This document shows, one piece after another, positions 2,124 to 56,707 of a stretch of DNA of 64,000 nt. The stretch is from the sequence record PQ471460.1. One strand, given 5' to 3'. Under the pieces are notes generated by a model. It saw only the letters and a program-made list of their open reading frames with translations. It was not told where the DNA came from and made no database searches. Made by a program: the position numbers and the translations under genes. The DNA comes from Escherichia phage vB_EcoM_JE01. The stretch's first letter is position 1; the number at the start of each line of letters is the position of its first letter.

Positions 2124-2864
2124 ATGATTAACGATTATATGACAGTTGAAGAAATCCGTCTTGATTTGGGTCTTGCATTAAAGGAAAAAGATTTCGTAAT
2201 TGATAAAACCGGTGTTAAAACTATTGAAATTATTGGTGCATCATTTGTAGCAGATGAACCTTTTATTTTTGGCGCTCTTAATGATGAATACATTCAGCGT
2301 GAACTTGAATGGTATAAGTCTCAAAGTTTGTTTGTTAAAGATATTCCAGGTGAAACACCAAAGATTTGGCAGCAGGTAGCATCTTCTAAAGGCGAAATTA
2401 ACTCGAATTATGGTTGGGCCATCTGGTCAGAAGATAACTATGCCCAGTATGATATGTGTTTAGCTGAACTTGGTCAAAATCCTGATTCTCGACGCGGTAT
2501 CATGATTTATACTCGTCCATCCATGCAGTTTGACTACAATAAAGATGGTATGTCAGATTTCATGTGTACGAATACAGTACAGTATCTGATTCGTGATAAG
2601 AAAGTCAATGCAGTAGTAAGCATGCGTTCAAATGACGTGGTCTTCGGATTCCGTAATGATTATGCATGGCAAAAATACGTACTAGATAAATTAGTATCTG
2701 ATTTGAATGCAGGTGATTCAACTCGTCAGTATAAAGCAGGTTCTATTATATGGAATGTCGGAAGTCTTCATGTGTATTCCCGTCATTTTTATTTGGTTGA
2801 CCATTGGTGGAAAACTGGCGAAACTCATATTGCGAAAAAAGATTATAACGGTGAGTGGAAATGA
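2124..2864 (+). CDS. 42: dCMP hydroxymethylase gp42 (246 aa)
   Basis: Thymidylate-synthase-like protein of exactly 246 aa between imm and uvsX. Confidence 0.9.
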   Translation: MINDYMTVEEIRLDLGLALKEKDFVIDKTGVKTIEIIGASFVADEPFIFGALNDEYIQRELEWYKSQSLFVKDIPGETPKIWQQVASSKGEINSNYGWAIWSEDNYAQYDMCLAELGQNPDSRRGIMIYTRPSMQFDYNKDGMSDFMCTNTVQYLIRDKKVNAVVSMRSNDVVFGFRNDYAWQKYVLDKLVSDLNAGDSTRQYKAGSIIWNVGSLHVYSRHFYLVDHWWKTGETHIAKKDYNGEWK

Positions 2865-3703
2865 TTCAATTCGTAATTCCAAGTTATCAACGCGTAGGGG
2901 CAGTTTCTGCCCTTAATATGTTTCCATCTGATTATGAACCTCATATTGTAGTACGTAAACACGAAGAAAAAGCTTATTATGATGCTTATGGGTCTAGAGC
3001 TAAAATTATAACTATTCCTGATGATGTTAATGGAATTGCTGGTACTCGTAAAGCAATTACTGATATGTATGCAGGCCAACGAATCTGGATGATTGATGAT
3101 GATACTACTATTCGTATGAGTTCAATGCGAAAGAAAGATGATCGTCGTTGCGTAGATAAAATTAATCAATTAACTCGTGAACAGTTCTATGAATTGATTC
3201 AATACGTTGAAGATGCCATGGATTGTGGGTATTATCACGGTCATGCTCGTCTACCTATTTTTAAAATTACTTCATCTTGGGGTAATTATCGTGAAAATTC
3301 ATATGGATTCACGAATACCTGGTATGACCTTGGAAAACTTACAACAGAACAAATTGGGTATGGAAAAATTGATTTATGCGAAGATATGTATGCATTTCTC
3401 AATTTAATTAATCAAGGTTATCCGCATTTGGCCTTGTTCAAATATCTGGTTGTATCTGGAAAAGCACAAGCTCCTGGCGGATGTAGTTCAATTCGTAGTA
3501 ATTCAAAACATAATAGAGCGCTTGAGCAAATCAATAGAGAGTTTCCAGAGCAAGCTCGTTGGAAAACTTCTAATATTGAAAAACGAAAATCATTAGGTGA
3601 AGAAGACGAGCCATTAAAGGTTCTTCGCATGTGTGTTTCGCGCAAAGAAAAATCAGAAGCATTTCATAAGTTTAATGCTATTCATCCAATAGCAGTTGAT
3701 TAA
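2861..3703 (+). CDS. Glycosyltransferase, GT-A-like with DxD motif (280 aa); probable hydroxymethylcytosine sugar transferase
   Basis: ATG overlaps gene 42 stop (ATGA); N-terminal VIPSYQR and IWMIDDDTTI (DxD) motifs; occupies the slot between 42 and uvsX where T4 has beta-gt, but is not T4 beta-gt. Confidence 0.6.
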   Translation: MIQFVIPSYQRVGAVSALNMFPSDYEPHIVVRKHEEKAYYDAYGSRAKIITIPDDVNGIAGTRKAITDMYAGQRIWMIDDDTTIRMSSMRKKDDRRCVDKINQLTREQFYELIQYVEDAMDCGYYHGHARLPIFKITSSWGNYRENSYGFTNTWYDLGKLTTEQIGYGKIDLCEDMYAFLNLINQGYPHLALFKYLVVSGKAQAPGGCSSIRSNSKHNRALEQINREFPEQARWKTSNIEKRKSLGEEDEPLKVLRMCVSRKEKSEAFHKFNAIHPIAVD

Positions 3704-3727
3704 TGCCTAAATTTATTGTGTTATAAT
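3704..3727 (+). promoter_or_regulatory. Middle-promoter-like element upstream of uvsX
   Basis: TGCCT (one mismatch to MotA box TGCTT) at 3704-3708, 13 nt gap, TATAAT 3722-3727. Confidence 0.3.
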
Positions 3728-3780
3728 TACCCTATCTTTAACCAGTGAGGAAAATATAATGATGCCTATGGAAAAAATGA

Positions 3781-4962
3781 ATGTCTATTGCAGATTTAAA
3801 ATCCCGTTTGATTAAAGCTTCCACTTCTAAAATGACTGCTGAACTGACTACATCTAAATTCTTTAATGAAAAGGATGTAATTCGTACAAAAATCCCAATG
3901 CTTAATATTGCTATTTCCGGTGCGATTGATGGCGGTATGCAGTCTGGTTTAACCATTTTTGCAGGTCCTTCTAAACACTTTAAATCAAATATGTCTTTGA
4001 CTATGGTTGCGGCGTATTTGAACAAATATCCTGACGCGGTTTGTCTATTTTATGATAGCGAATTTGGTATTACTCCAGCTTATTTGCGATCCATGGGAGT
4101 TGACCCGGAACGAGTAATTCATACACCAATTCAGTCAGTTGAACAGCTGAAAATTGATATGGTGAATCAGCTTGAAGCTATTGAGCGCGGTGAAAAAGTT
4201 ATTGTATTCATCGACTCAATCGGTAATATGGCTTCTAAGAAAGAAACGGAAGATGCCTTGAATGAAAAATCTGTGGCAGATATGACTCGTGCTAAATCAC
4301 TGAAGTCATTATTCCGTATTGTTACTCCTTATTTTAGCATTAAAAATATTCCATGTGTTGCGGTTAACCATACAATTGAAACAATTGAAATGTTTAGTAA
4401 AACCGTGATGACAGGTGGTACAGGCGTAATGTATTCGGCTGATACTGTATTCATTATCGGTAAGCGCCAGATTAAAGATGGTTCCGATCTTCAGGGATAT
4501 CAATTTGTTCTAAATGTAGAAAAATCTCGTACCGTCAAAGAAAAAAGTAAATTCTTTATTGATGTTAAATTTGACGGCGGCATCGATCCTTATTCTGGAT
4601 TGTTAGATATGGCTCTTGAATTAGGGTTTGTAGTAAAACCTAAAAATGGTTGGTATGCTCGTGAATTTCTTGACGAAGAAACTGGCGAGATGATTCGCGA
4701 AGAAAAATCTTGGCGTGCAAAAGATACCAATTGCACTACATTCTGGGGTCCTTTATTTAAGCATCAACCATTCCGAGATGCTATTAAACGTGCTTATCAG
4801 TTAGGTGCTATTGATAGTAATGAAATTGTTGAAGCTGAAGTCGACGAATTGATTAACTCAAAGGTTGAAAAATTTAAATCTCCAGAAAGTAAAAGTAAAT
4901 CAGCAGCTGATTTAGAAACTGACCTAGAACAGTTAAGTGATATGGAAGAATTTAATGAATAA
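3781..4962 (+). CDS. uvsX: UvsX recombinase (RecA-like), 393 aa
   Basis: Near-identical over most of its length to T4 UvsX as I recall it; Walker A GPSKHFKS. Confidence 0.95.
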   Translation: MSIADLKSRLIKASTSKMTAELTTSKFFNEKDVIRTKIPMLNIAISGAIDGGMQSGLTIFAGPSKHFKSNMSLTMVAAYLNKYPDAVCLFYDSEFGITPAYLRSMGVDPERVIHTPIQSVEQLKIDMVNQLEAIERGEKVIVFIDSIGNMASKKETEDALNEKSVADMTRAKSLKSLFRIVTPYFSIKNIPCVAVNHTIETIEMFSKTVMTGGTGVMYSADTVFIIGKRQIKDGSDLQGYQFVLNVEKSRTVKEKSKFFIDVKFDGGIDPYSGLLDMALELGFVVKPKNGWYAREFLDEETGEMIREEKSWRAKDTNCTTFWGPLFKHQPFRDAIKRAYQLGAIDSNEIVEAEVDELINSKVEKFKSPESKSKSAADLETDLEQLSDMEEFNE

Positions 4963-8684: not shown

Positions 8685-9713
8685 ATGTCATCAATACCTT
8701 GGATTGATAATGAGTTTGCATACCGTGCATTAGCTCATTTACCTAAATTCACACAAGTAAATAATAGTTCAACTTTTAAATTACGGTTTAGATGCCCTGT
8801 TTGTGGAGATTCAAAAACCGACCAAAATAAAGCCCGTGGATGGTATTATGGCGATAATAATGAAGGAAATATTCATTGTTATAACTGTAACTATCATGCA
8901 CCAATCGGAATATATTTAAAGGAGTTTGAACCTGATTTATATCGTGAGTATATCTTTGAAATAAGAAAAGAAAAAGGTAAAAGTCGTCCAGTAGAAAAAC
9001 CTAAAGAACTTCCTAAACAACCCGAGAAGAAAATAATTAAATCTCTTCCGTCATGCATTAGATTAGATAAACTGGCGGAAGACCATCCAATTATAAAATA
9101 CGTAAAAGCTCGTTGTATTCCAAAGGATAAATGGAAATATCTTTGGTTTACAACTGAATGGCCTAAATTAGTTAATAGTATAGCACCAGGAACATATAAA
9201 AAGGAAATACCTGAGCCTCGTCTTGTTATTCCAATTTATAATGCTAATGGAAAAGCTGAGTCTTTTCAAGGACGTGCATTAAAGAAAGATGCTCCCCAAA
9301 AATATATCACCATCAAAGCTTATCCTGAGGCAACAAAAATTTATGGTGTTGAACGAGTTAAAGATGGTGATGTATATGTTCTAGAAGGACCTATAGATTC
9401 ACTTTTTATTGAAAATGGTATAGCTATTACGGGTGGTCAATTAGACCTAGAAATTGTTCCATTTAAAGATAGACGTGTATGGGTTTTAGATAATGAACCT
9501 CGTCACCCTGACACTATTAAACGAATGACTAAATTAGTTGATGCAGGAGAAAGGGTTATGTTTTGGGATAAATCTCCCTGGAAATCAAAAGATGTCAATG
9601 ATATGATTAGAAAGGAAGGTGCAACCCCTGAACAAATTATGGAATATATGAAAAATAATATTGCCCAAGGGCTGATGGCTAAAATGCGGCTATCTAAATA
9701 TGCTAAGATTTAA
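8685..9713 (+). CDS. 61: DNA primase gp61, 342 aa
   Basis: 342 aa; zinc-ribbon CPVCGDS...CYNCN and TOPRIM-like core. Confidence 0.9.
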   Translation: MSSIPWIDNEFAYRALAHLPKFTQVNNSSTFKLRFRCPVCGDSKTDQNKARGWYYGDNNEGNIHCYNCNYHAPIGIYLKEFEPDLYREYIFEIRKEKGKSRPVEKPKELPKQPEKKIIKSLPSCIRLDKLAEDHPIIKYVKARCIPKDKWKYLWFTTEWPKLVNSIAPGTYKKEIPEPRLVIPIYNANGKAESFQGRALKKDAPQKYITIKAYPEATKIYGVERVKDGDVYVLEGPIDSLFIENGIAITGGQLDLEIVPFKDRRVWVLDNEPRHPDTIKRMTKLVDAGERVMFWDKSPWKSKDVNDMIRKEGATPEQIMEYMKNNIAQGLMAKMRLSKYAKI

Positions 9714-9980: not shown

Positions 9981-10631
9981 GTGAATTACCAAAAAATTTA
10001 CTCGGCTTTAATTACAAAAGCTAAATGCCGGCATCTTGGTGGATATAAAGAACGCCATCATATAATTCCTAGATGTATGGGAGGAGCAGATGACAAAAAC
10101 AATCTTGTTGAGTTAACTGCGCGTGAGCATTTTATAGCTCATAGATTATTAACCAAAATATATCCAGATGTGAGAGGATTGCATTATGCTGTAAATTTAA
10201 TGCGATATAATAAAGGTGTTAAATTAACAAGTAGATTAATAGAAACCCTTAAAATTCAAAACTCTGTTCTTTTCTCGGGTGAAAATAATCCTAGATATGG
10301 CAAGCCGTCATGGATTAAAGGCAAAAAGACCCCAGAAGAAACTAAAGCCAAAATGCGTCTAGCTCATAAAGGTAAAATTATATCCGATGAAGCCAAGGCT
10401 AATATGAGTAAAGCCCGAAAAGGAAGATTTAGCGGTAAAAATTCACCTCGATATTGTTTACCGAATCCAAGACGTGGTGAGATATGGAATTCGTATGATT
10501 CGCTTTACGAGTTGTGGGTTTATAATAATAGACCTAAGCGCACAAAATTTAATAAAATAGCTGTCAAGGCAGGTTATCCTAATATCTGCTATAGACATAT
10601 GATAGAAAACTTCATAAGAAAGGAAAAATAA
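9981..10631 (+). CDS. HNH homing endonuclease (216 aa, GTG start)
   Basis: HNH motif ERHHIIPRCMGGADDKNNLVELTAREHFIAH plus NUMOD-like repeats (ENNPRYGKP, KAKMRLAHKGK, KANMSKARKG). Confidence 0.7.
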   Translation: MNYQKIYSALITKAKCRHLGGYKERHHIIPRCMGGADDKNNLVELTAREHFIAHRLLTKIYPDVRGLHYAVNLMRYNKGVKLTSRLIETLKIQNSVLFSGENNPRYGKPSWIKGKKTPEETKAKMRLAHKGKIISDEAKANMSKARKGRFSGKNSPRYCLPNPRRGEIWNSYDSLYELWVYNNRPKRTKFNKIAVKAGYPNICYRHMIENFIRKEK

Positions 10632-10632
10632 C

Positions 10633-11151
10633 ATGCCACATTTCAACGAATGTAGTCATCTGATCGAAGGCGCTGATAAAGCTCAAAATGAATACTGGGA
10701 TATTCTCGGTGACGAAAAAGACCCGCTGCAAGTTATGCTTGATATGCAGAAATCTCTGCAAGTTCGTTTAGCTAAAGATAAACCTGAATATAATCGTCAT
10801 CCTGATGATTTGGCTACTGCTGGTGAAGTTGTTGATTGGCTGCGTAATCAGAAAGATTATATTGACGATGAATTCCGTGAACTTCTGACATCTCTTGGTG
10901 GTATGAGCAATGGCGAAAAAGATGCATCTGCTGTATGGAAGCCTTGGAAAGCTCAACATGGTGAACGCCGTGAAACTCTAATTACCGATTTGTCTCCGCA
11001 AGACCAGTTGGAAATTAAATTCGAAATGATTGATATTCTTCATTTCGTTCTGAACATGTTCCAAGGTCTTGGTCTTACAGCTGAAGAAATCTTTAAACTT
11101 TATTATCTGAAAAATGCTGAAAACTTCGCTCGTCAAGACCGAGGTTATTAA
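10633..11151 (+). CDS. 56: dCTPase / dCTP pyrophosphatase gp56 (172 aa)
   Basis: MazG-like protein of T4 gp56 length, upstream of soc. Confidence 0.85.
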   Translation: MPHFNECSHLIEGADKAQNEYWDILGDEKDPLQVMLDMQKSLQVRLAKDKPEYNRHPDDLATAGEVVDWLRNQKDYIDDEFRELLTSLGGMSNGEKDASAVWKPWKAQHGERRETLITDLSPQDQLEIKFEMIDILHFVLNMFQGLGLTAEEIFKLYYLKNAENFARQDRGY

Positions 11152-11184
11152 TATAAACGACAGCTTAAAAGCCGTGAGAATTAT

Positions 11185-21919: not shown

Positions 21920-23740
21920 GTGATGATTAAGAATGAAATTAAAATTCTGAGCGATATTGAACATATCAAAAAGCGTAGCGGCATGTATATTGGCTCTTCT
22001 GCTAATGAAATGCATGAGCGCTTTCTGTTTGGTAAATGGGAAAGTGTTCAGTATGTACCTGGTCTTGTTAAGCTTATTGATGAAATTATTGATAACTCAG
22101 TAGATGAAGGTATTCGTACTAAGTTTAAATTCGCAAATAAAATTAATGTTACTATCAAAAACAATCAAGTAACAGTTGAAGATAACGGTCGTGGTATTCC
22201 ACAGGCGATGGTTAAAACACCTACCGGTGAAGAAATTCCTGGTCCTGTTGCTGCATGGACTATTCCAAAAGCAGGTGGTAACTTTGGTGATGATAAAGAA
22301 CGCGTCACTGGCGGTATGAACGGTGTTGGTTCTAGTTTAACTAACATTTTTTCTGTGATGTTTGTCGGTGAAACTGGCGACGGTCAAAATAATATTGTAG
22401 TTCGCTGCTCGAATGGCATGGAAAATAAATCGTGGGAAGATATTCCTGGAAAATGGAAAGGAACACGTGTTACTTTCATACCTGATTTTATGTCATTTGA
22501 AACTAATGAGCTATCTCAAGTTTATCTTGACATTACACTAGATCGTCTCCAGACACTTGCAGTAGTTTATCCTGATATTCAATTTACCTTTAATGGTAAA
22601 AAGGTTCAGGGTAATTTTAAGAAATATGCACGCCAATATGATGAACATGCTATCGTTCAAGAACAAGAAAATTGTTCTATTGCGGTTGGTCGTTCACCGG
22701 ATGGTTTTCGTCAATTAACATACGTCAATAACATTCATACTAAGAATGGTGGCCATCACATTGACTGCGTTATGGATGATATTTGTGAAGACCTTATTCC
22801 ACAAATCAAACGTAAGTTCAAAATTGATGTAACTAAAGCACGTGTTAAAGAATGTTTGACTATCGTTATGTTTGTTCGTGATATGAAAAACATGCGATTT
22901 GATTCTCAAACTAAAGAGCGTTTGACTTCTCCATTTGGTGAAATTCGTAGTCATATTCAGCTTGATGCTAAAAAGATTTCACGTGCTATTTTAAATAATG
23001 AAGCAATTTTAATGCCAATCATTGAAGCTGCCTTGGCTCGTAAATTGGCGGCAGAAAAAGCAGCAGAAACTAAAGCAGCTAAAAAGGCTTCTAAAGCTAA
23101 GGTTCATAAACATATTAAAGCGAATCTTTGTGGTAAAGATGCTGATACTACTCTTTTCTTGACTGAGGGTGATTCTGCTATTGGATATCTTATTGATGTT
23201 CGTGATAAAGAACTTCATGGTGGTTATCCATTGCGTGGTAAAGTTCTTAACAGTTGGGGCATGTCATATGCTGATATGCTTAAAAACAAAGAACTATTTG
23301 ATATTTGCGCAATCACTAGATTAGTTCTTGGTGAAAAAGCCGAAAACTTGAATTATCATAATATTGCAATTATGACCGATGCTGACCATGATGGTCTAGG
23401 AAGCATTTATCCTTCTCTGCTCGGATTTTTTAGTAATTGGCCAGAATTGTTTGAACAAGGAAGAATTCGCTTTGTCAAAACTCCTGTAATCATCGCTCAG
23501 GTCGGCAAAAAACAAGAATGGTTTTATACAGTCGCTGAATATGAGAGTGCCAAAGATGCTCTACCTAAACATAGCATCCGTTATATTAAAGGACTTGGCT
23601 CTTTGGAAAAATCTGAATATCGTGAGATGATTCAAAATCCAGTATATGATGTTGTTAAACTTCCTGAGAATTGGAAAGAGCTTTTTGAAATGCTCATGGG
23701 AGATAATGCTGACCTTCGTAAAGAATGGATGAGCCAGTAG
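21920..23740 (+). CDS. 39: Topoisomerase II large (GyrB-like) subunit gp39, single uninterrupted 606-aa gene
   Basis: GHKL ATPase N-terminus, TOPRIM motifs EGDSA and MTDADHDG in one continuous ORF; no separate gene 60 between it and rIIA. Confidence 0.85.
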   Translation: MMIKNEIKILSDIEHIKKRSGMYIGSSANEMHERFLFGKWESVQYVPGLVKLIDEIIDNSVDEGIRTKFKFANKINVTIKNNQVTVEDNGRGIPQAMVKTPTGEEIPGPVAAWTIPKAGGNFGDDKERVTGGMNGVGSSLTNIFSVMFVGETGDGQNNIVVRCSNGMENKSWEDIPGKWKGTRVTFIPDFMSFETNELSQVYLDITLDRLQTLAVVYPDIQFTFNGKKVQGNFKKYARQYDEHAIVQEQENCSIAVGRSPDGFRQLTYVNNIHTKNGGHHIDCVMDDICEDLIPQIKRKFKIDVTKARVKECLTIVMFVRDMKNMRFDSQTKERLTSPFGEIRSHIQLDAKKISRAILNNEAILMPIIEAALARKLAAEKAAETKAAKKASKAKVHKHIKANLCGKDADTTLFLTEGDSAIGYLIDVRDKELHGGYPLRGKVLNSWGMSYADMLKNKELFDICAITRLVLGEKAENLNYHNIAIMTDADHDGLGSIYPSLLGFFSNWPELFEQGRIRFVKTPVIIAQVGKKQEWFYTVAEYESAKDALPKHSIRYIKGLGSLEKSEYREMIQNPVYDVVKLPENWKELFEMLMGDNADLRKEWMSQ

Positions 23741-47433: not shown

Positions 47434-47458
47434 TTGCTTATTATAAATAGATTATAAT
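47432..47458 (+). promoter_or_regulatory. Stacked middle and late promoters upstream of gene 32
   Basis: MotA-box-like aatTGCTTa (47432-47440), late TATAAATA 47442-47449, TATAAT 47453-47458. Confidence 0.5.
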
Positions 47459-47466
47459 TATCTCAC

Positions 47467-47498
47467 TGACCAGCTATGAGGTCATACATCGTCATAGC
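47467..47498 (+). promoter_or_regulatory. Gene 32 mRNA leader pseudoknot (autoregulatory translational operator)
   Basis: H-type pseudoknot: S1 TGACC (47467-47471) pairs GGTCA (47480-47484); S2 GCTATG (47473-47478) pairs CATAGC (47493-47498); followed by A/U-rich unstructured leader to the ATG. Confidence 0.7.
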
Positions 47499-49534: not shown

Positions 49535-49777
49535 ATGATTTTTGTATTTGAATTTATGAATGATGAATTCGATTATGCAATTTTTAACGCATTGCATAAT
49601 CCTGATTTAAATGAATTTAATGAAATGTTTTCTGACGCTTTGAGTATGTCAGAAGAATACTGCGGAGAATGTCAACGTGTTTGTGTGACAGTCTTTGAAA
49701 ACAAAGAAAAGACATATGAAGAATTATTCTTTGACGCTAATAAAGCCACTGAATGGTTTATTGAAAGGGGATTTTGA
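49535..49777 (+). CDS. Hypothetical protein (80 aa)
   Basis: ORF. Confidence 0.4.
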   Translation: MIFVFEFMNDEFDYAIFNALHNPDLNEFNEMFSDALSMSEEYCGECQRVCVTVFENKEKTYEELFFDANKATEWFIERGF

Positions 49778-50365
<588 letters not shown>

Positions 50366-50385
50366 AATAACACGTGGCGGAAAAT

Positions 50386-50733
50386 ATGAGCTTTAATTAT
50401 TACCCTATTCTATTAGAAAAAGACGCGAAACAACCAAAATGGCAGGGTCCTCAGTTTATTAAAGGTGTCTATCAATTAGTAGTTCCTAAAGACAAAATTT
50501 ATAGCAGTTGTTTCACTGAATCCGCTTGCAGTATTTTTGGTAATAGTTCTCCGTATTGGAATTTTGATATAAAGCTGGATAGAAATATCGATATTTGGTT
50601 GAAAGCTATGGATATTGGCAATATCACGTTTGATGAGAATAATTATCATATTATTGGTCGTTTTTCCAAACGTGGTAAAGAATTATATTTCATGCCTGAA
50701 ATTGAAAGAAAATTTGACGCTAAACCGTATTGA
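50386..50733 (+). CDS. Hypothetical protein (115 aa) inserted between frd and td
   Basis: ATG 50386; ORF-track frame 50374..50733 uses a GTG start. Confidence 0.45.
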   Translation: MSFNYYPILLEKDAKQPKWQGPQFIKGVYQLVVPKDKIYSSCFTESACSIFGNSSPYWNFDIKLDRNIDIWLKAMDIGNITFDENNYHIIGRFSKRGKELYFMPEIERKFDAKPY

Positions 50734-50778: not shown

Positions 50779-51327
50779 ATGAAACAATACCAAGATTTAA
50801 TTAAAGACATTTTTGAAAATGGCTATGAAACCGATGACCGAACAGGCACAGGAACAATTGCTTTGTTCGGTACTAAATTACGCTGGGATTTAACTAAAGG
50901 TTTTCCTGCGGTAACAACTAAGAAGCTCGCCTGGAAAGCTTGCATTGCTGAGCTAATATGGTTTTTATCGGGAAGCACAAATGTCAATGATTTACGATTA
51001 ATTCAGCATGATTCATTAATTCAAGGCAAAACAGTCTGGGATGAAAATTACGAAAATCAAGCAAAAGATTTAGGATACCATAGCGGTGAACTTGGTCCAA
51101 TTTATGGAAAACAGTGGCGTGATTTTGGTGGTGTAGACCAAATTGTAGAAGTTATTGATCGTATTAAAAAACTACCAAATGATAGGCGTCAAATTGTTTC
51201 TGCGTGGAATCCAGCTGAACTTAAATATATGGCATTACCGCCTTGTCATATGTTCTATCAGTTTAATGTGCGTAATGGCTATTTGGATTTGCAGTGGTAT
51301 CAAAGAAGTGTAGATGTTTTCTTGGGT
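50779..51327 (+). CDS. td: Thymidylate synthase, exon 1 (183 codons)
   Basis: TS N-terminal domain; reading frame hits the in-frame TAA that is the first triplet of the group I intron. Confidence 0.9.
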
Positions 51328-52343
51328 TAATTGAGGCCTGAGTATAAGGTGACTTATACTTGTAATCTATCTAAACGGGGAAACTCTCTAGTAGACAATC
51401 CCGTGCTAAATTGTAGGACCACCCTTTAATAAATACCTTTATATTTAAAGAGGTATTTATGAAAAGTGGAATTTATCAGATTAAAAATACTTTAAACAAT
51501 AAAGTATATGTAGGAAGTGCTAAAGATTTTGAAAAGAGATGGAAGAGGCATTTTAAAGACTTAGAAAAAGGATGCCATTCTTCTATAAAACTTCAAAGGT
51601 CTTTTAACAAACACGGTAATGTGTTTGAATGCTCTATTTTGGAAGAAATTCCATATGAGAAAGATTTGATTATTGAACGAGAAAATTTTTGGATTAAAGA
51701 GCTTAATTCTAAAATTAATGGATATAATATTGCTGATGCAACGTTTGGTGATACATATTCTGTGCATCCATTAAAAGAAGAAATTATTAAGAAACGTTCT
51801 GAAACTGTTAAAGCTAAGATGCTTAAGCTTGGAACTGATGGTCGGAAAGCTCTTTACGGTAAACCCGGAAGTAAAAACGGACGATGGAATCCAGAAAAAC
51901 ACAAATTTTGTAAGTGCGGTGTTCGTATACAAACTTCTGCTTATACTTGTAGTAAATGCAGAAATCGTTCAGGTGAAAATAATTCATTCTTTAATCATAA
52001 GCATTCAGACATAACTAAATCTAAAATATCAGAAAAGATGAAAGGTAAAAAGCCTAGTAATATTAAAAAGATTTCATGTGATGGGGTTATTTTTGAATGT
52101 GCAGCTGACGCAGCTAGACATTTTGAAATTTCATCCGGATTAGTTACTTACCGTGTAAAATCTGATAAGTGGAATTGGTTCTACATAAATGCCTAACGAC
52201 TATCCCTTTAGGGAGTAGGGTCAAGTGACTCGAAACGATAGACAACTTGCTTTAACAAGTTGGAGATATAGTCTGCTCTGTATGGTGACATGCAGCTGGA
52301 TATAATTCCGGGATAAGATTAACGACCTTATCTGAACATAATG
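51328..52343 (+). mobile_element. td group I self-splicing intron (1016 nt) carrying the I-TevI homing endonuclease gene
   Basis: Begins TAATTGAGGCCTGAGTATAAGGTGACTTATAC..., ends ...GGGATAAGATTAACGACCTTATCTGAACATAATG; TS frame resumes at 52344; length and sequence match the T4 td intron as I recall it. Confidence 0.9.
51459..52196 (+). CDS. I-TevI GIY-YIG homing endonuclease (245 aa), intron-encoded
   Basis: GIY-YIG motif GIYQIKN...KVYVGSA; 245 aa inside the td intron. Confidence 0.9.
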   Translation: MKSGIYQIKNTLNNKVYVGSAKDFEKRWKRHFKDLEKGCHSSIKLQRSFNKHGNVFECSILEEIPYEKDLIIERENFWIKELNSKINGYNIADATFGDTYSVHPLKEEIIKKRSETVKAKMLKLGTDGRKALYGKPGSKNGRWNPEKHKFCKCGVRIQTSAYTCSKCRNRSGENNSFFNHKHSDITKSKISEKMKGKKPSNIKKISCDGVIFECAADAARHFEISSGLVTYRVKSDKWNWFYINA

Positions 52344-52655
52344 CTTCCATTCAACATTGCATCATATGCTGCATTAGTTCATATTGTAGCTAAGATGTGT
52401 AATCTTATTCCAGGAGATTTGATATTTTCTGGTGGTAATACTCATATCTATATGAATCACGTAGAACAATGTAAAGAAATTTTGCGTCGTGAACCTAAAG
52501 AGCTCTGTGAACTGGTAATAGGCGGATTGCCTTATAAATTCCGCTATCTTTCTACTAAAGAACAATTGGAATACATTCTTAAACTCAGGCCTAAAGATTT
52601 CGTTCTCAAAGATTATCAGTCCCATGGTGTCTTGAAAGGAAAAATGGCGGTGTAA
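52344..52655 (+). CDS. td: Thymidylate synthase, exon 2 (103 codons)
   Basis: LPFNIASYAALVHIVAKMCNL... continues TS C-terminal domain; exon1+exon2 = 286 aa. Confidence 0.9.
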   Translation, partial: LPFNIASYAALVHIVAKMCNLIPGDLIFSGGNTHIYMNHVEQCKEILRREPKELCELVIGGLPYKFRYLSTKEQLEYILKLRPKDFVLKDYQSHGVLKGKMAV

Positions 52656-53222: not shown

Positions 53223-55477
53223 TTAATGTTATCAAAAGTAGTGGTGTTTCTCAGAGCTTTGACCCGCAAAAAATTATTAAAGTTTTATCTTGGGCAGCTG
53301 AAGGAACATCTGTAGATCCTTATGAATTATATGAAAATATTAAATCATATCTCCGTGATGGAATGACAACTGATGACATTCAGACTATTGTCATTAAGGC
53401 TGCTGCGAATTCTATTTCAGTTGAAGAGCCTGATTATCAATACGTAGCCGCTCGCTGTTTAATGTTTGCTCTTCGTAAGCATGTTTACGGACAATATGAA
53501 CCACGTTCATTTATTGACCATATTTCTTACTGTGTAAATGAAGGTAAATATGACCCTGAACTGCTGTCAAAATATTCAGCAGAAGAAATTACATTTTTAG
53601 AATCAAAAATTAAGCACGAGCGGGATATGGAATTTACTTATTCCGGGGCGATGCAATTAAAAGAAAAATATCTCGTTAAAGATAAAACCACTGGTCAAAT
53701 TTATGAAACTCCGCAGTTTGCATTTATGACTATTGGAATGGCATTGCATCAAGATGAACCCGTTGATAGACTAAAACACGTTATTCGTTTTTATGAAGCA
53801 GTATCTACTCGACAGATTTCACTGCCAACTCCTATTATGGCTGGTTGTCGTACTCCAACTCGGCAGTTTAGTTCATGCGTTGTTATTGAGGCAGGTGATT
53901 CGCTGAAGTCTATCAATAAGGCTTCCGCTTCAATTGTTGAGTATATTTCTAAACGAGCTGGAATTGGCATTAACGTTGGTATGATTCGTGCCGAAGGTTC
54001 TAAGATTGGCACAGGTGAAGTGCGTCATACTGGTGTTATTCCTTTTTGGAAACATTTTCAGACTGCTGTTAAATCATGCTCACAGGGTGGAATTCGTGGC
54101 GGCGCTGCTACTGCTTATTATCCTATTTGGCATTTGGAAGTTGAAAATCTTCTCGTTTTGAAAAATAACAAAGGCGTAGAAGAAAACCGTATTCGTCATA
54201 TGGATTATGGCGTTCAACTGAATGACCTAATGATGGAACGATTCGGAAAGAACGACTACATTACCTTGTTCAGTCCGCATGAAATGGGTGGCGAGCTTTA
54301 TTATTCTTATTTTAAAGACCAAGACCGTTTCCGTGAATTATATGAAGCCGCAGAAAAAGACCCTAATATTCGTAAAAAGCGTATTAAAGCCCGTGAACTG
54401 TTTGAATTGCTCATGACTGAACGATCAGGAACAGCAAGGATTTATGTACAGTTCATTGATAATACGAATAACTATACTCCATTTATTCGTGAAAAGGCAC
54501 CTATTCGTCAGAGTAACTTGTGTTGTGAAATTGCTATTCCAACAAATGATGTGAATAGTCCTGATGCTGAAATTGGATTGTGTACCCTTAGCGCATTCGT
54601 GTTGGATAACTTCGATTGGCAAGACCAAGATAAAATTAATGAATTAGCAGAAGTTCAAGTTCGCGCTCTTGATAATCTTTTGGATTACCAAGGATATCCA
54701 GTTCCTGAAGCAGAAAAAGCTAAAAAGCGTCGAAATCTTGGTGTAGGTGTTACTAACTATGCAGCTTGGCTGGCAAGTAACTTTGCTTCTTATGAAGATG
54801 CTAACGATTTAACACATGAACTATTTGAGAGATTACAGTATGGACTCATTAAAGCATCCATTAAGCTCGCCAAAGAAAAAGGACCTTGCGAATATTATTC
54901 AGACACTCGTTGGTCTCGAGGCGAATTACCTATCGACTGGTACAATAAAAAGATTGACCAAATCGCAGCTCCAAAATACGTTTGTGACTGGTCGTCGCTG
55001 CGGGAAGACCTTAAGCTCTTTGGCATCCGTAATAGCACATTATCAGCACTTATGCCATGTGAGTCATCTTCCCAAGTTTCTAACAGTACAAACGGTATCG
55101 AGCCTCCACGTGGACCAGTCTCTGTTAAAGAATCAAAAGAGGGTTCCTTTAATCAAGTCGTGCCCAATATTGAGCATAACATAGACCTCTATGATTATAC
55201 GTGGAAATTAGCTAAGAAAGGCAATAAACCTTATCTTACGCAGGTAGCTATTATGCTGAAATGGGTATGTCAATCAGCTTCAGCGAATACATATTATGAC
55301 CCGCAGATTTTTCCAAAAGGAAAGGTTCCAATGTCTGTAATGATTGATGACCTTTTGTACTTTTGGTATTTTGGCGGAAAAAATTTCTATTATCATAATA
55401 CCCGCGACGGTTCTGGTACTGATGATTATGAAATAGAAACTCCAAAAGCTGAAGATTGTTCATCCTGTAAATTATGA
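53213..55477 (+). CDS. nrdA: Aerobic ribonucleotide reductase large subunit NrdA (754 aa)
   Basis: ATP-cone N-terminus and class I RNR catalytic core; 754 aa. Confidence 0.9.
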   Translation: MQLINVIKSSGVSQSFDPQKIIKVLSWAAEGTSVDPYELYENIKSYLRDGMTTDDIQTIVIKAAANSISVEEPDYQYVAARCLMFALRKHVYGQYEPRSFIDHISYCVNEGKYDPELLSKYSAEEITFLESKIKHERDMEFTYSGAMQLKEKYLVKDKTTGQIYETPQFAFMTIGMALHQDEPVDRLKHVIRFYEAVSTRQISLPTPIMAGCRTPTRQFSSCVVIEAGDSLKSINKASASIVEYISKRAGIGINVGMIRAEGSKIGTGEVRHTGVIPFWKHFQTAVKSCSQGGIRGGAATAYYPIWHLEVENLLVLKNNKGVEENRIRHMDYGVQLNDLMMERFGKNDYITLFSPHEMGGELYYSYFKDQDRFRELYEAAEKDPNIRKKRIKARELFELLMTERSGTARIYVQFIDNTNNYTPFIREKAPIRQSNLCCEIAIPTNDVNSPDAEIGLCTLSAFVLDNFDWQDQDKINELAEVQVRALDNLLDYQGYPVPEAEKAKKRRNLGVGVTNYAAWLASNFASYEDANDLTHELFERLQYGLIKASIKLAKEKGPCEYYSDTRWSRGELPIDWYNKKIDQIAAPKYVCDWSSLREDLKLFGIRNSTLSALMPCESSSQVSNSTNGIEPPRGPVSVKESKEGSFNQVVPNIEHNIDLYDYTWKLAKKGNKPYLTQVAIMLKWVCQSASANTYYDPQIFPKGKVPMSVMIDDLLYFWYFGGKNFYYHNTRDGSGTDDYEIETPKAEDCSSCKL

Positions 55478-55528
55478 TATAATTTGACTCACGGACGAGT
55501 CACTATCTATTAACTAAGCGGAAAATTT

Positions 55529-56707
55529 ATGAGCACAGTTTTTAATACAAACCCAGTTGATGTTTTAAAAGAACCTATGTTCTTCGGTTCAGGTCTTGGT
55601 ATTGCGCGTTATGATATTCAACGTCATAAAGTTTTTGAAGATTTAACCGAAAAGCAGTTGTCATTTTTCTGGCGTCCTGAAGAAGTAAACTTAATGATGG
55701 ATGCTGCACAATTTAACAAGCTTCCTCAATATCAGCAAGATATTTTTACTAATAATCTGAAGTATCAATCACTTCTAGATAGCATTCAGGGTCGTGCGCC
55801 ATCTGCTGTACTTATGTCATTAATTTCAGACCCAAGTCTTGATACATGGGTTGCTACATGGACTTTTAGTGAAACTATTCACAGTCGTTCATATACTCAT
55901 ATCATGCGAAATCTTTATACTGATCCATCGAAGGTATTTGATGAGATTGTACTAGATGAAGCTATCATGAAACGTGCTGAATCTATCGGTCGCTATTATG
56001 ATGATGTTCTGACTAAAACCCGTGAATGGGAAAATGCTAAAGAATTTACAGAACTAGCTAAAGAATCTCCTGATGCTGTTTTTCGTTTAAATCGAGCTAT
56101 TAAACAAGAAGCCGAAGCTAAACGAGCACTAATGAAATCTCTTTACCTCTGTTTGCACGTTATTAATGCCTTAGAAGCTATTCGTTTTTATGTATCTTTT
56201 GCATGTACCTTTAACTTCCATAAGAACATGGAAATCATGGAAGGTAATGCCAAGATTATGAAGTTCATTGCACGTGATGAGCAGCTTCACCTTAAAGGCA
56301 CACAATATATTATTCGTCAACTTCAATCCGGTACTGATGGCGATGAATGGGTTAAAATTGCTCAAGAGTGTGAACAAGAAGCAGTTGATATTTTCATGGA
56401 AGTTAACCGCCAAGAAAAAGATTGGGCAGTTCATTTATTTAAAGATGGCGATGTTCCTGGATTAAATACAAATAGCATGTGGAGCTTTATTGATTACTTA
56501 ACTGTATCTCGTATGAAACAGTGCGGTCTTCCATGCCCAATTACCGATGCTCCGGTTAAACATCCATATCCTTGGATTCGTGAATATCTTAATTCTGATA
56601 ATGTTCAATCCGCGCCACAAGAAGTAGAACTGTCATCTTACCTTGTTGCACAGATTGATAATGATGTTGATGATAAAGTTATGATGAGTTTTAAAAAATA
56701 CTTTTAA
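55529..56707 (+). CDS. nrdB: Ribonucleotide reductase small subunit NrdB (392 aa), intron-less
   Basis: Single continuous ORF with the di-iron/tyrosyl-radical ferritin-like fold; no intervening sequence. Confidence 0.9.
   Translation: MSTVFNTNPVDVLKEPMFFGSGLGIARYDIQRHKVFEDLTEKQLSFFWRPEEVNLMMDAAQFNKLPQYQQDIFTNNLKYQSLLDSIQGRAPSAVLMSLISDPSLDTWVATWTFSETIHSRSYTHIMRNLYTDPSKVFDEIVLDEAIMKRAESIGRYYDDVLTKTREWENAKEFTELAKESPDAVFRLNRAIKQEAEAKRALMKSLYLCLHVINALEAIRFYVSFACTFNFHKNMEIMEGNAKIMKFIARDEQLHLKGTQYIIRQLQSGTDGDEWVKIAQECEQEAVDIFMEVNRQEKDWAVHLFKDGDVPGLNTNSMWSFIDYLTVSRMKQCGLPCPITDAPVKHPYPWIREYLNSDNVQSAPQEVELSSYLVAQIDNDVDDKVMMSFKKYF

Follow-up and report, generated by a model that had tools for sequence, protein, structure and literature searches.

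Group I intron homing was elucidated with the td intron and its endonuclease I-TevI as the model system. The distribution of introns and endonuclease genes among the T-even phages is inconsistent owing to homing (PMC2988022), and the background on the T4-type td intron, I-TevI and the nrd locus is available in three reports (PMC2988022, PMC2790892, PMC1865063). No nrdB intron is present in T2 or T6 (PMC1865063, citing Pedersen-Lane and Belfort 1987), T2 lacks both mobE and the nrdB intron (PMC2790892), and a database match shows that T6 carries the td intron. In T4, a hairpin that holds the ribosome-binding site of I-TevI has been ascribed a regulatory role (PMC2988022).

We analysed a stretch of 64,000 nucleotides, called here the window. 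A megablast search assigned it to Tequatrovirus; identity was about 96% for the best 24-kb matches, and none of the genomes in the phage collection was nearly identical to the window. Between 45 and 58 kb, the T4 gene order is kept on the plus strand: rnh, dsbA, 33, 59, 32, frd.3, frd.2, frd.1 and frd, followed by td, nrdA.2, nrdA.1, nrdA, nrdB, denA and rnlA. We consider it almost certain that the window belongs to a T2/T6-like Tequatrovirus in which 51328-52343 is an I-TevI-encoding td group I intron of the classical type, nrdB is intron-less and the nrdA-nrdB spacer is free of endonuclease genes. The td locus is composed of the following features:

50779 to 51327, plus strand: td exon 1, 183 codons ending ...VDVFLG (ORF list and sequence).
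51323 to 51327: 5' strand of P1 within td exon 1, UGGGU, the last five nucleotides of the exon, U51327 forming the U-G wobble pair of the 5' splice site.
51328 to 52343, plus strand: td insert, the td group I intron, 1016 nt, ending in G52343.
51459 to 52196, plus strand: GIY-YIG homing endonuclease I-TevI, 245 aa (ORF list and Pfam).
52344 to 52655, plus strand: td exon 2, 103 codons and a stop, starting LPFNIASYA... after ...AUAAUG.

These coordinates all agree with the initial annotation, which had td split after codon 183 by a 1016-nt intron carrying a 245-aa I-TevI. The first three bases of the insert (51328-51330) are an in-frame TAA; the insert begins UAAUUGAGGCC and ends AACAUAAUG, as does the T4 td intron. 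When the exons were joined in silico, the td frame was restored and yielded a 286-aa Td protein that matched Pfam Thymidylat_synt over positions 1-266 of 266 (E = 7.8e-95) and was colinear with T4 Td, with 12 substitutions. Furthermore, td is uninterrupted (861 nt) in the relatives Sf22 and GEP001, with the same junction as the spliced td of the window. The window exon alleles differ from those of T4, exon 2 being only 87% identical to its T4 counterpart.

An ORF of 115-119 aa (50374-50733, plus strand, probable ATG at 50386) belonging to PHROG 1928, of unknown function, lies between frd and td, whereas frd and td overlap in T4; the promoter and translation context of td therefore differs from that of T4. 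This gene was considered as another mobile endonuclease and rejected, as it has no Pfam match and matches PHROG 1928 only. It is also found in Sf22, GEP001, VEc20 and N2 and, being annotated in both intron-less and intron-bearing relatives, corresponds to a normal non-T4 gene. Another ORF without T4 counterpart (49535-49777, plus strand, 80 aa; PHROG 3183, unknown function) is located in the frd.1/frd interval.

The nrd region has the following organisation:

55478 to 55528, plus strand: nrdA-nrdB spacer, 51 nt, where T4 has 700 nt with mobE and nrdB.1.
55529 to 56707, plus strand: intron-less nrdB, one ORF of 392 aa with a Pfam Ribonuc_red_sm match.
Between 56204 and 56205: position of the T4 nrdB intron site, uninterrupted in the window.

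The ORF list and the alignment to T4 both indicate that nrdB is a single continuous 392-aa ORF without intron, and the end of nrdA at 55477 and the start of nrdB at 55529 leave a gap of 51 nt, so that the initial annotation was correct on both points. Across the T4 intron site the window reads TCTTTTGCAT followed directly by GTACC, with nothing inserted (TTTGCAT/GTACC, compared to ...TTTGCGT/GTACC... in T4). The 598-nt T4 nrdB intron is missing in the alignment to T4, and the window NrdB is colinear with both T4 NrdB exons. The 4 aa by which it exceeds T4 NrdB in length stem from a divergent patch covering residues ~171-197 (56039-56119). Using tblastn, none of T4 MobE, NrdB.1, I-TevIII and SegG was detected at the nrdA-nrdB spacer, and I-TevIII had no match anywhere in the window. 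An HNH gene overlapping the nrdA stop and located between nrdA and nrdB, which is the MobE arrangement, was not found there, the two genes being separated by the 51-nt spacer only. The nearest database matches of the nrd segment are the isolates F13076 and GEP001 (98.2-98.3%). We propose that nrdB be annotated as a single CDS.

Two further observations were made in this region. The identity to T4 nrdB exon 1 is 85.7% over 55529-56202, compared to 98.2% from 56205 over nrdB exon 2 and denA, and the whole-window alignment extends to 59760 at 96.5%. This shift is sharp and coincides with the T4 intron site; as it lies near the sites of action of T4 MobE and I-TevIII, it may reflect a history of co-conversion. 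In addition, the spacer sequence TATAAT (55478-55483) precedes a perfect inverted repeat of 5 bp, GACTC-ACGGAC-GAGTC (55486-55501). Together they occupy 55478-55501 ahead of nrdB and may act as a promoter or form an RNA hairpin.

The reported absence of mobE holds for the nrd locus but not for the window as a whole if MobE-like genes are counted. Indeed, an HNH homing endonuclease gene of 216 aa (9981-10631, plus strand; PHROG 655, "homing endonuclease") contains the only MobE-like match of the window, 9981-10478 being 40% identical to T4 MobE by tblastn. It sits between the primase gene 61 (8685-9713) and the dCTPase gene 56 (10633-11151), in the position of T4 dam, and no Dam homologue was detectable anywhere in the window. 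This same insert is present in only 29 of the 529 records matching the region. The 9981-10478 match was therefore rejected as the mobE of the nrd locus: it belongs to a different, known HNH gene at the dam position.

Comparison of the whole window with the syntenic T4 segments showed that I-TevI is the only homing endonuclease gene of this T4 region that is present, segA, segF, segG, mobE, I-TevIII and the mobA pseudogene with 60.1 being absent. The interval between 59 and 32 that holds segG in T4 is 35 nt long (47435-47469; 623 nt in T4) and that between 56 and soc, which holds segF, is 70 nt long (11115-11184; 696 nt in T4). The 1117-nt T4 segment with mobA, 60.1 and the gene 60 bypass is reduced to 64 nt (23341-23404), so that genes 39 and 60 appear fused. 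Finally, T4 beta-gt and segA (2847-3792 in the window) are replaced by a T2/T6-type beta-glucosyl-HMC-alpha-glucosyltransferase gene (2855-3703).

To describe the occupancy of the homing loci in relatives, we used a 5073-nt query running from the start of the td intron to beyond the nrdB intron site and considered the best 60 records, all of which carry the td intron. The layout of the window (td intron, no nrdB intron, no mobE) was found in 35 of these 60 td-intron-bearing records, which match the query in one piece over the same span and hence have the same configuration. It is the majority state among the td-intron-bearing Tequatrovirus records of this sample. The other records of the best 60 have an nrdB intron of about 1.09 kb, an endonuclease inside nrdA, or mobE together with an nrdB intron (RB3). 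More broadly, a direct nrdA-nrdB junction was observed in 407 of 546 matching records, the T4 nrdB intron at a coverage of at least 80% in 118 records, and full-length T4 mobE in only 21. Variable occupancy of the td, nrdB and mobE loci has been published since 1987, and the pattern of the window is a known polymorphism rather than a new one.

The initial annotation had also presented this mosaic pattern as useful for placing the phage among its relatives. The word mosaic is supported by the comparison with T4, since the occupancy of the T4 elements in the window is mixed; the use for placement has to be toned down, as the layout is shared by 35 of the best 60 records. That the occupancy pattern marks a lineage and places the phage in a T-even subgroup would agree with the nrdB and mobE states published for T2 and T6 (PMC1865063, PMC2790892), with the td intron of T6 and with the T2/T6-type glucosyltransferase of the window. 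However, among the best 60 records the same layout is spread over Escherichia, Yersinia and Shigella phages, the td exons are mosaic relative to several relatives, and occupancy varies between close relatives of the flanking DNA (GEP001 and Sf22 are without td intron, and nrdB is interrupted by a long intron in ECO07P1). The elements spread horizontally by homing (PMC2988022), which makes occupancy a weak taxonomic marker, and the mixed occupancy at the other T4 loci, where the nearest flanking relatives differ as well, likewise makes it a poor phylogenetic character. We thus regard a lineage-marking role as unlikely, and return to the reading of 51328-52343 as a classical td intron residing in a T2/T6-like phage.

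End-to-end alignment of the insert with the T4 td intron (reference AF158101.6, in which the intron is 1017 nt) gave a full-length match with 36 differences, including a 1-nt indel, that is 96.5% identity. At least 80% of the intron is carried by 197 phage records, the best of which is 97.0% identical and none of which reaches 99%. Twenty-nine of the 36 differences from T4 are common to more divergent intact alleles (SQ17, VEc20, HMGUkp2, Melville, UoN_LG358), and the remaining seven occur in the window alone when seven full-length alleles are compared. The window-specific changes include a C-to-A change in J4/5 at 51383, and a 1-nt deletion with two substitutions at 51419-51421.

The fold of the intron was examined with a model of 80 pairs comprising P1, P2, P3, P4, P5, P6, P6a, P7, P7.1, P7.2, P8, P9, P9.1, P9.2 and P10. 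Its elements are located as follows:

51333 to 51340, plus strand: internal guide sequence; P1 is formed by 51336-51340 with exon 1, and P10 by 51333-51335 with 52344-52346, the first three nucleotides of exon 2.
51341 to 51360, plus strand: P2 hairpin, 8 bp, GUGA loop.
51366 to 51406, plus strand: 5' core, with the P3 5' strand (51366-51371), P4 (51375-51380 with 51399-51404), P5 (51385-51387 with 51393-51395) and the P6 5' strand (51405-51406).
51412 to 51419, plus strand: P6a 5' strand, pairing with 52178-52185, the last I-TevI codons, with the ORF looped out between.
52191 to 52343, plus strand: 3' core, with the P6 3' strand (52191-52192), P7 (52198-52202 with 52269-52273), P7.1 (52203-52214), P7.2 (52218-52231), the P3 3' strand (52237-52242), P8 (52243-52262), P9 (52278-52295), P9.1 (52296-52311), P9.2 (52312-52332) and the terminal G52343.

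All 80 pairs of the P1-P10 model are standard pairs in the window, in agreement with the group I fold announced by the initial annotation. The core helices P3-P9, including the P3/P7 pseudoknot, are complete, with every pair of P3, P4, P5, P6, P6a, P7, P8 and P9 formed; P7.1 and P7.2 correspond to the IA2-type extra hairpins, and the terminal guanosine of the intron, G52343, lies directly before exon 2. The end of the I-TevI ORF forms the 3' strand of P6a in T4 (PMC2988022), and 52178-52185 does likewise in the window. An unconstrained minimum free energy fold of the ORF-deleted intron recovered all nested helices (P2-P6a, P7.1, P7.2, P8, P9, P9.1 and P9.2) at -79.8 kcal/mol (z = -3.0).

The model was further evaluated by covariation in an alignment of ten td-intron variants from which the ORF loop was cut out. 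Pairing was retained in 99.2% of the cells, compared to 32-45% when the 3' partners were slid by 1-3 columns. Changes on both sides were observed in six pairs: two each in P8 and P9.2, a single one in P7.2, and the third P10 pair, which is G-U, U-A, A-U or U-G depending on the variant. Fourteen cells showed such a two-sided change, a number reached in none of 500 shuffles. In P1, U51327-G51336 stays U-G in all ten variants and the one-sided changes elsewhere in the helix keep pairing. P3, P4, P5, P6 and P7 are invariant in this sample and consequently uninformative for covariation either way.

Regarding the differences from T4 in the 3' core, the G-to-A change at 52210 lies in the P7.1 loop, the C-to-U change at 52281 converts a P9 C-G pair to U-G and the G-to-A change at 52313 converts a P9.2 G-U pair to A-U; these three differences are structurally neutral. 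The C-to-A change at 51383, found in the window only, is the sole change in a sensitive single-stranded region, and as J4/5 is a functionally sensitive joining region, this change, which may affect splicing, was counted against the reading as a classical td intron.

At the gathering threshold, Rfam gave no match over the whole window. In E-value mode (51200-52500), RF00028 matched the 3' half (P3', P8, J8/7, P7' and P9) with 31.6 bits (E = 6.7e-6) and the 5' half (P4-P6) with 17.1 bits, the gathering score being 50. The window copy stays below the threshold because of the ORF-bearing P6a loop of about 760 nt, which the model cannot bridge; natural ORF-less td introns with the same core (254-320 nt) scored 63.8-77.1 bits against the same threshold. 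The matches to snoR66, the PyrD leader and other Rfam families in 51200-52500 in E-value mode were disregarded as chance matches.

It follows from the ORF in P6a that the default Rfam threshold misses the intron and that automatic pipelines will report two separate thymidylate synthase fragments for td, a state seen in many database records. For td we propose an annotation that joins two exons (50779..51327, 52344..52655) and places I-TevI within the intron. Beyond annotation the finding matters little: the td intron with I-TevI found here is an already known element, in the commonest arrangement in related phages.

The I-TevI of the window is 97% identical in amino acids to that of T4, from which it differs by C100Y, T102V, P126T, S134G, T147K, D213E and K223E. 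Three Pfam domains are intact: GIY-YIG (PF01541, E = 2.1e-18), I-TevI_ZnF (PF22635, E = 1.4e-20) and I-TevI_DNA-bd (PF20987, E = 3.6e-32). Residues 1-97 are those of wild-type I-TevI, with E75, the chain in PDB 1MK0 being the E75A mutant. Over residues 130-245, 112 of 116 positions are identical to the DNA-binding domain of PDB 1I3J, and the CxC...CxxC cysteines are present. Among the codons that differ from T4, 18 are synonymous and 7 nonsynonymous, a split which, judged from the codons, is consistent with purifying selection. Two elements were predicted around the start of the gene:

51427 to 51435, plus strand: late-promoter-like TAATAAATA.
51429 to 51460, plus strand: hairpin sequestering the ribosome-binding site and start of I-TevI, with GAGG (51450-51453) and the AUG paired up.

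The hairpin has the same fold in the window and in T4 (-15.2 and -15.1 kcal/mol, respectively; z = -4.7); the two substitutions in its 5' arm change a U-G pair to C-G and a C-G pair to U-G, with the energy unchanged.

These data make it extremely unlikely that the td intron is decaying, with splicing or I-TevI crippled by the window-specific changes (at 51383, at 51419-51421 and in seven amino acids) and td being a pseudogene or the endonuclease dead like T4 I-TevIII: seven of the 36 differences from T4 are indeed private to the window, and relatives commonly carry degenerate derivatives whose ORF is shortened or lost (254-445 nt introns in CE1, GRNsp7, MLP2, G28 and N2), but all helices are fully paired, the P9 change leaves a U-G pair and the P7.1 change falls in a loop, the ORF is of full length, its catalytic domain is unchanged and none of the zinc-finger cysteines is lost, its codon changes are mostly synonymous with the amino acid changes confined to the linker and two positions of the DNA-binding domain, and the 29 other differences occur in other intact alleles. 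An intact td intron with I-TevI remains the preferred reading.

A patch in td exon 1 overlaps the region cleaved by I-TevI. At 51301-51309 (-27 to -19 relative to the 5' splice site), the window reads CAA AGA AGT where T4 has CAA CGC TCA, amounting to five synonymous changes; the changed codons AGA AGT lie 19-24 nt upstream. The CNNNG motif is kept within the patch (C51301 and G51305), and it is found at -27 to -23 in the window exon 1 (CAAAG, 51301-51305) as well as in intron-less td alleles. Among the few alleles examined, the same patch is present in the intron-less Sf22 and GEP001 and in N2, which has an ORF-less intron, but in none of the remaining intron-bearing alleles; the other full-length T4-type introns have CGN TCN or CGC AGT instead of AGA AGT. 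Sf22 and GEP001 diverge further at -1, +1 and +3, where these intron-less alleles have C, T and G, respectively. If homing normally converts the whole stretch from the cut to the intron, the junction would imply either that a crossover fell inside the final 18 bp of exon 1 or that a separate intron lineage has been resident for long in this exon background. That the td allele of the window preserves a recombination footprint at this patch is improbable in our opinion; if true, it would provide a natural probe of the limits of the co-conversion tract and of the tolerance of I-TevI for its cleavage site.

By homology with T4, the td pre-mRNA of the window would fold into the P1-P10 core. Exogenous guanosine would attack after U51327, held in the U-G wobble by the internal guide sequence, and the freed exon 1 would then attack after the terminal G52343 while P10 aligns exon 2, joining codon 183 to codon 184. 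The I-TevI ORF would be looped out of P6a, its 3' end supplying one strand of this helix, and I-TevI would be translated only from late transcripts, as its ribosome-binding site is expected to be held in the hairpin. During mixed infection, an intron-less td would become the substrate of I-TevI, which would bind at the insertion site and cleave at a CNNNG motif 23/25 nt upstream of it, and repair from the intron-bearing genome would copy the intron across, which constitutes homing. The nrdB intron would either never have been acquired or have been lost. Both splicing and homing activity are thus attributed to this locus by analogy with the T4 system.

With respect to known systems, the closest is the T4 td intron (subgroup IA2), with which the window intron shares the host gene, the insertion after Gly183, the splice context GGU/UAAUU ... 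AUAAUG/CU, the same helices including P7.1 and P7.2, the ORF in the P6a loop and the hairpin sequestering the ribosome-binding site; it is one base shorter than the 1017 nt of the T4 intron (AF158101.6). The ORF-less td introns of CE1, GRNsp7 and N2 occupy the same insertion site, and the shared core is 96-98% identical to that of the window. By contrast, these introns are only 254-262 nt long and have lost I-TevI, whereas the window keeps the full ORF. CE1 closes the same P6a stem with a 4-nt loop, and in GRNsp7 an unrelated sequence takes the place of the P6a stem and likewise folds into a hairpin (CAGC-AGUA-GCUG). Over the first 15 bases of exon 2, GRNsp7 is identical to the window, whereas CE1 and N2 differ at two positions. 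In Escherichia phage N2 (ON645936.1), the ORF-less 254-nt td intron lies at 1670-1923 of the N2 segment, and a free-standing gene annotated "endonuclease I-TevI" is found at 2490-3221, some 0.6 kb downstream of td and encoded by the other strand; it could be the intron endonuclease relocated outside its intron. As for the nrd region, the window resembles the T2/T6 type, known from published description, in that no intron interrupts nrdB and that nrdA lies next to nrdB, without a free-standing endonuclease gene between them.
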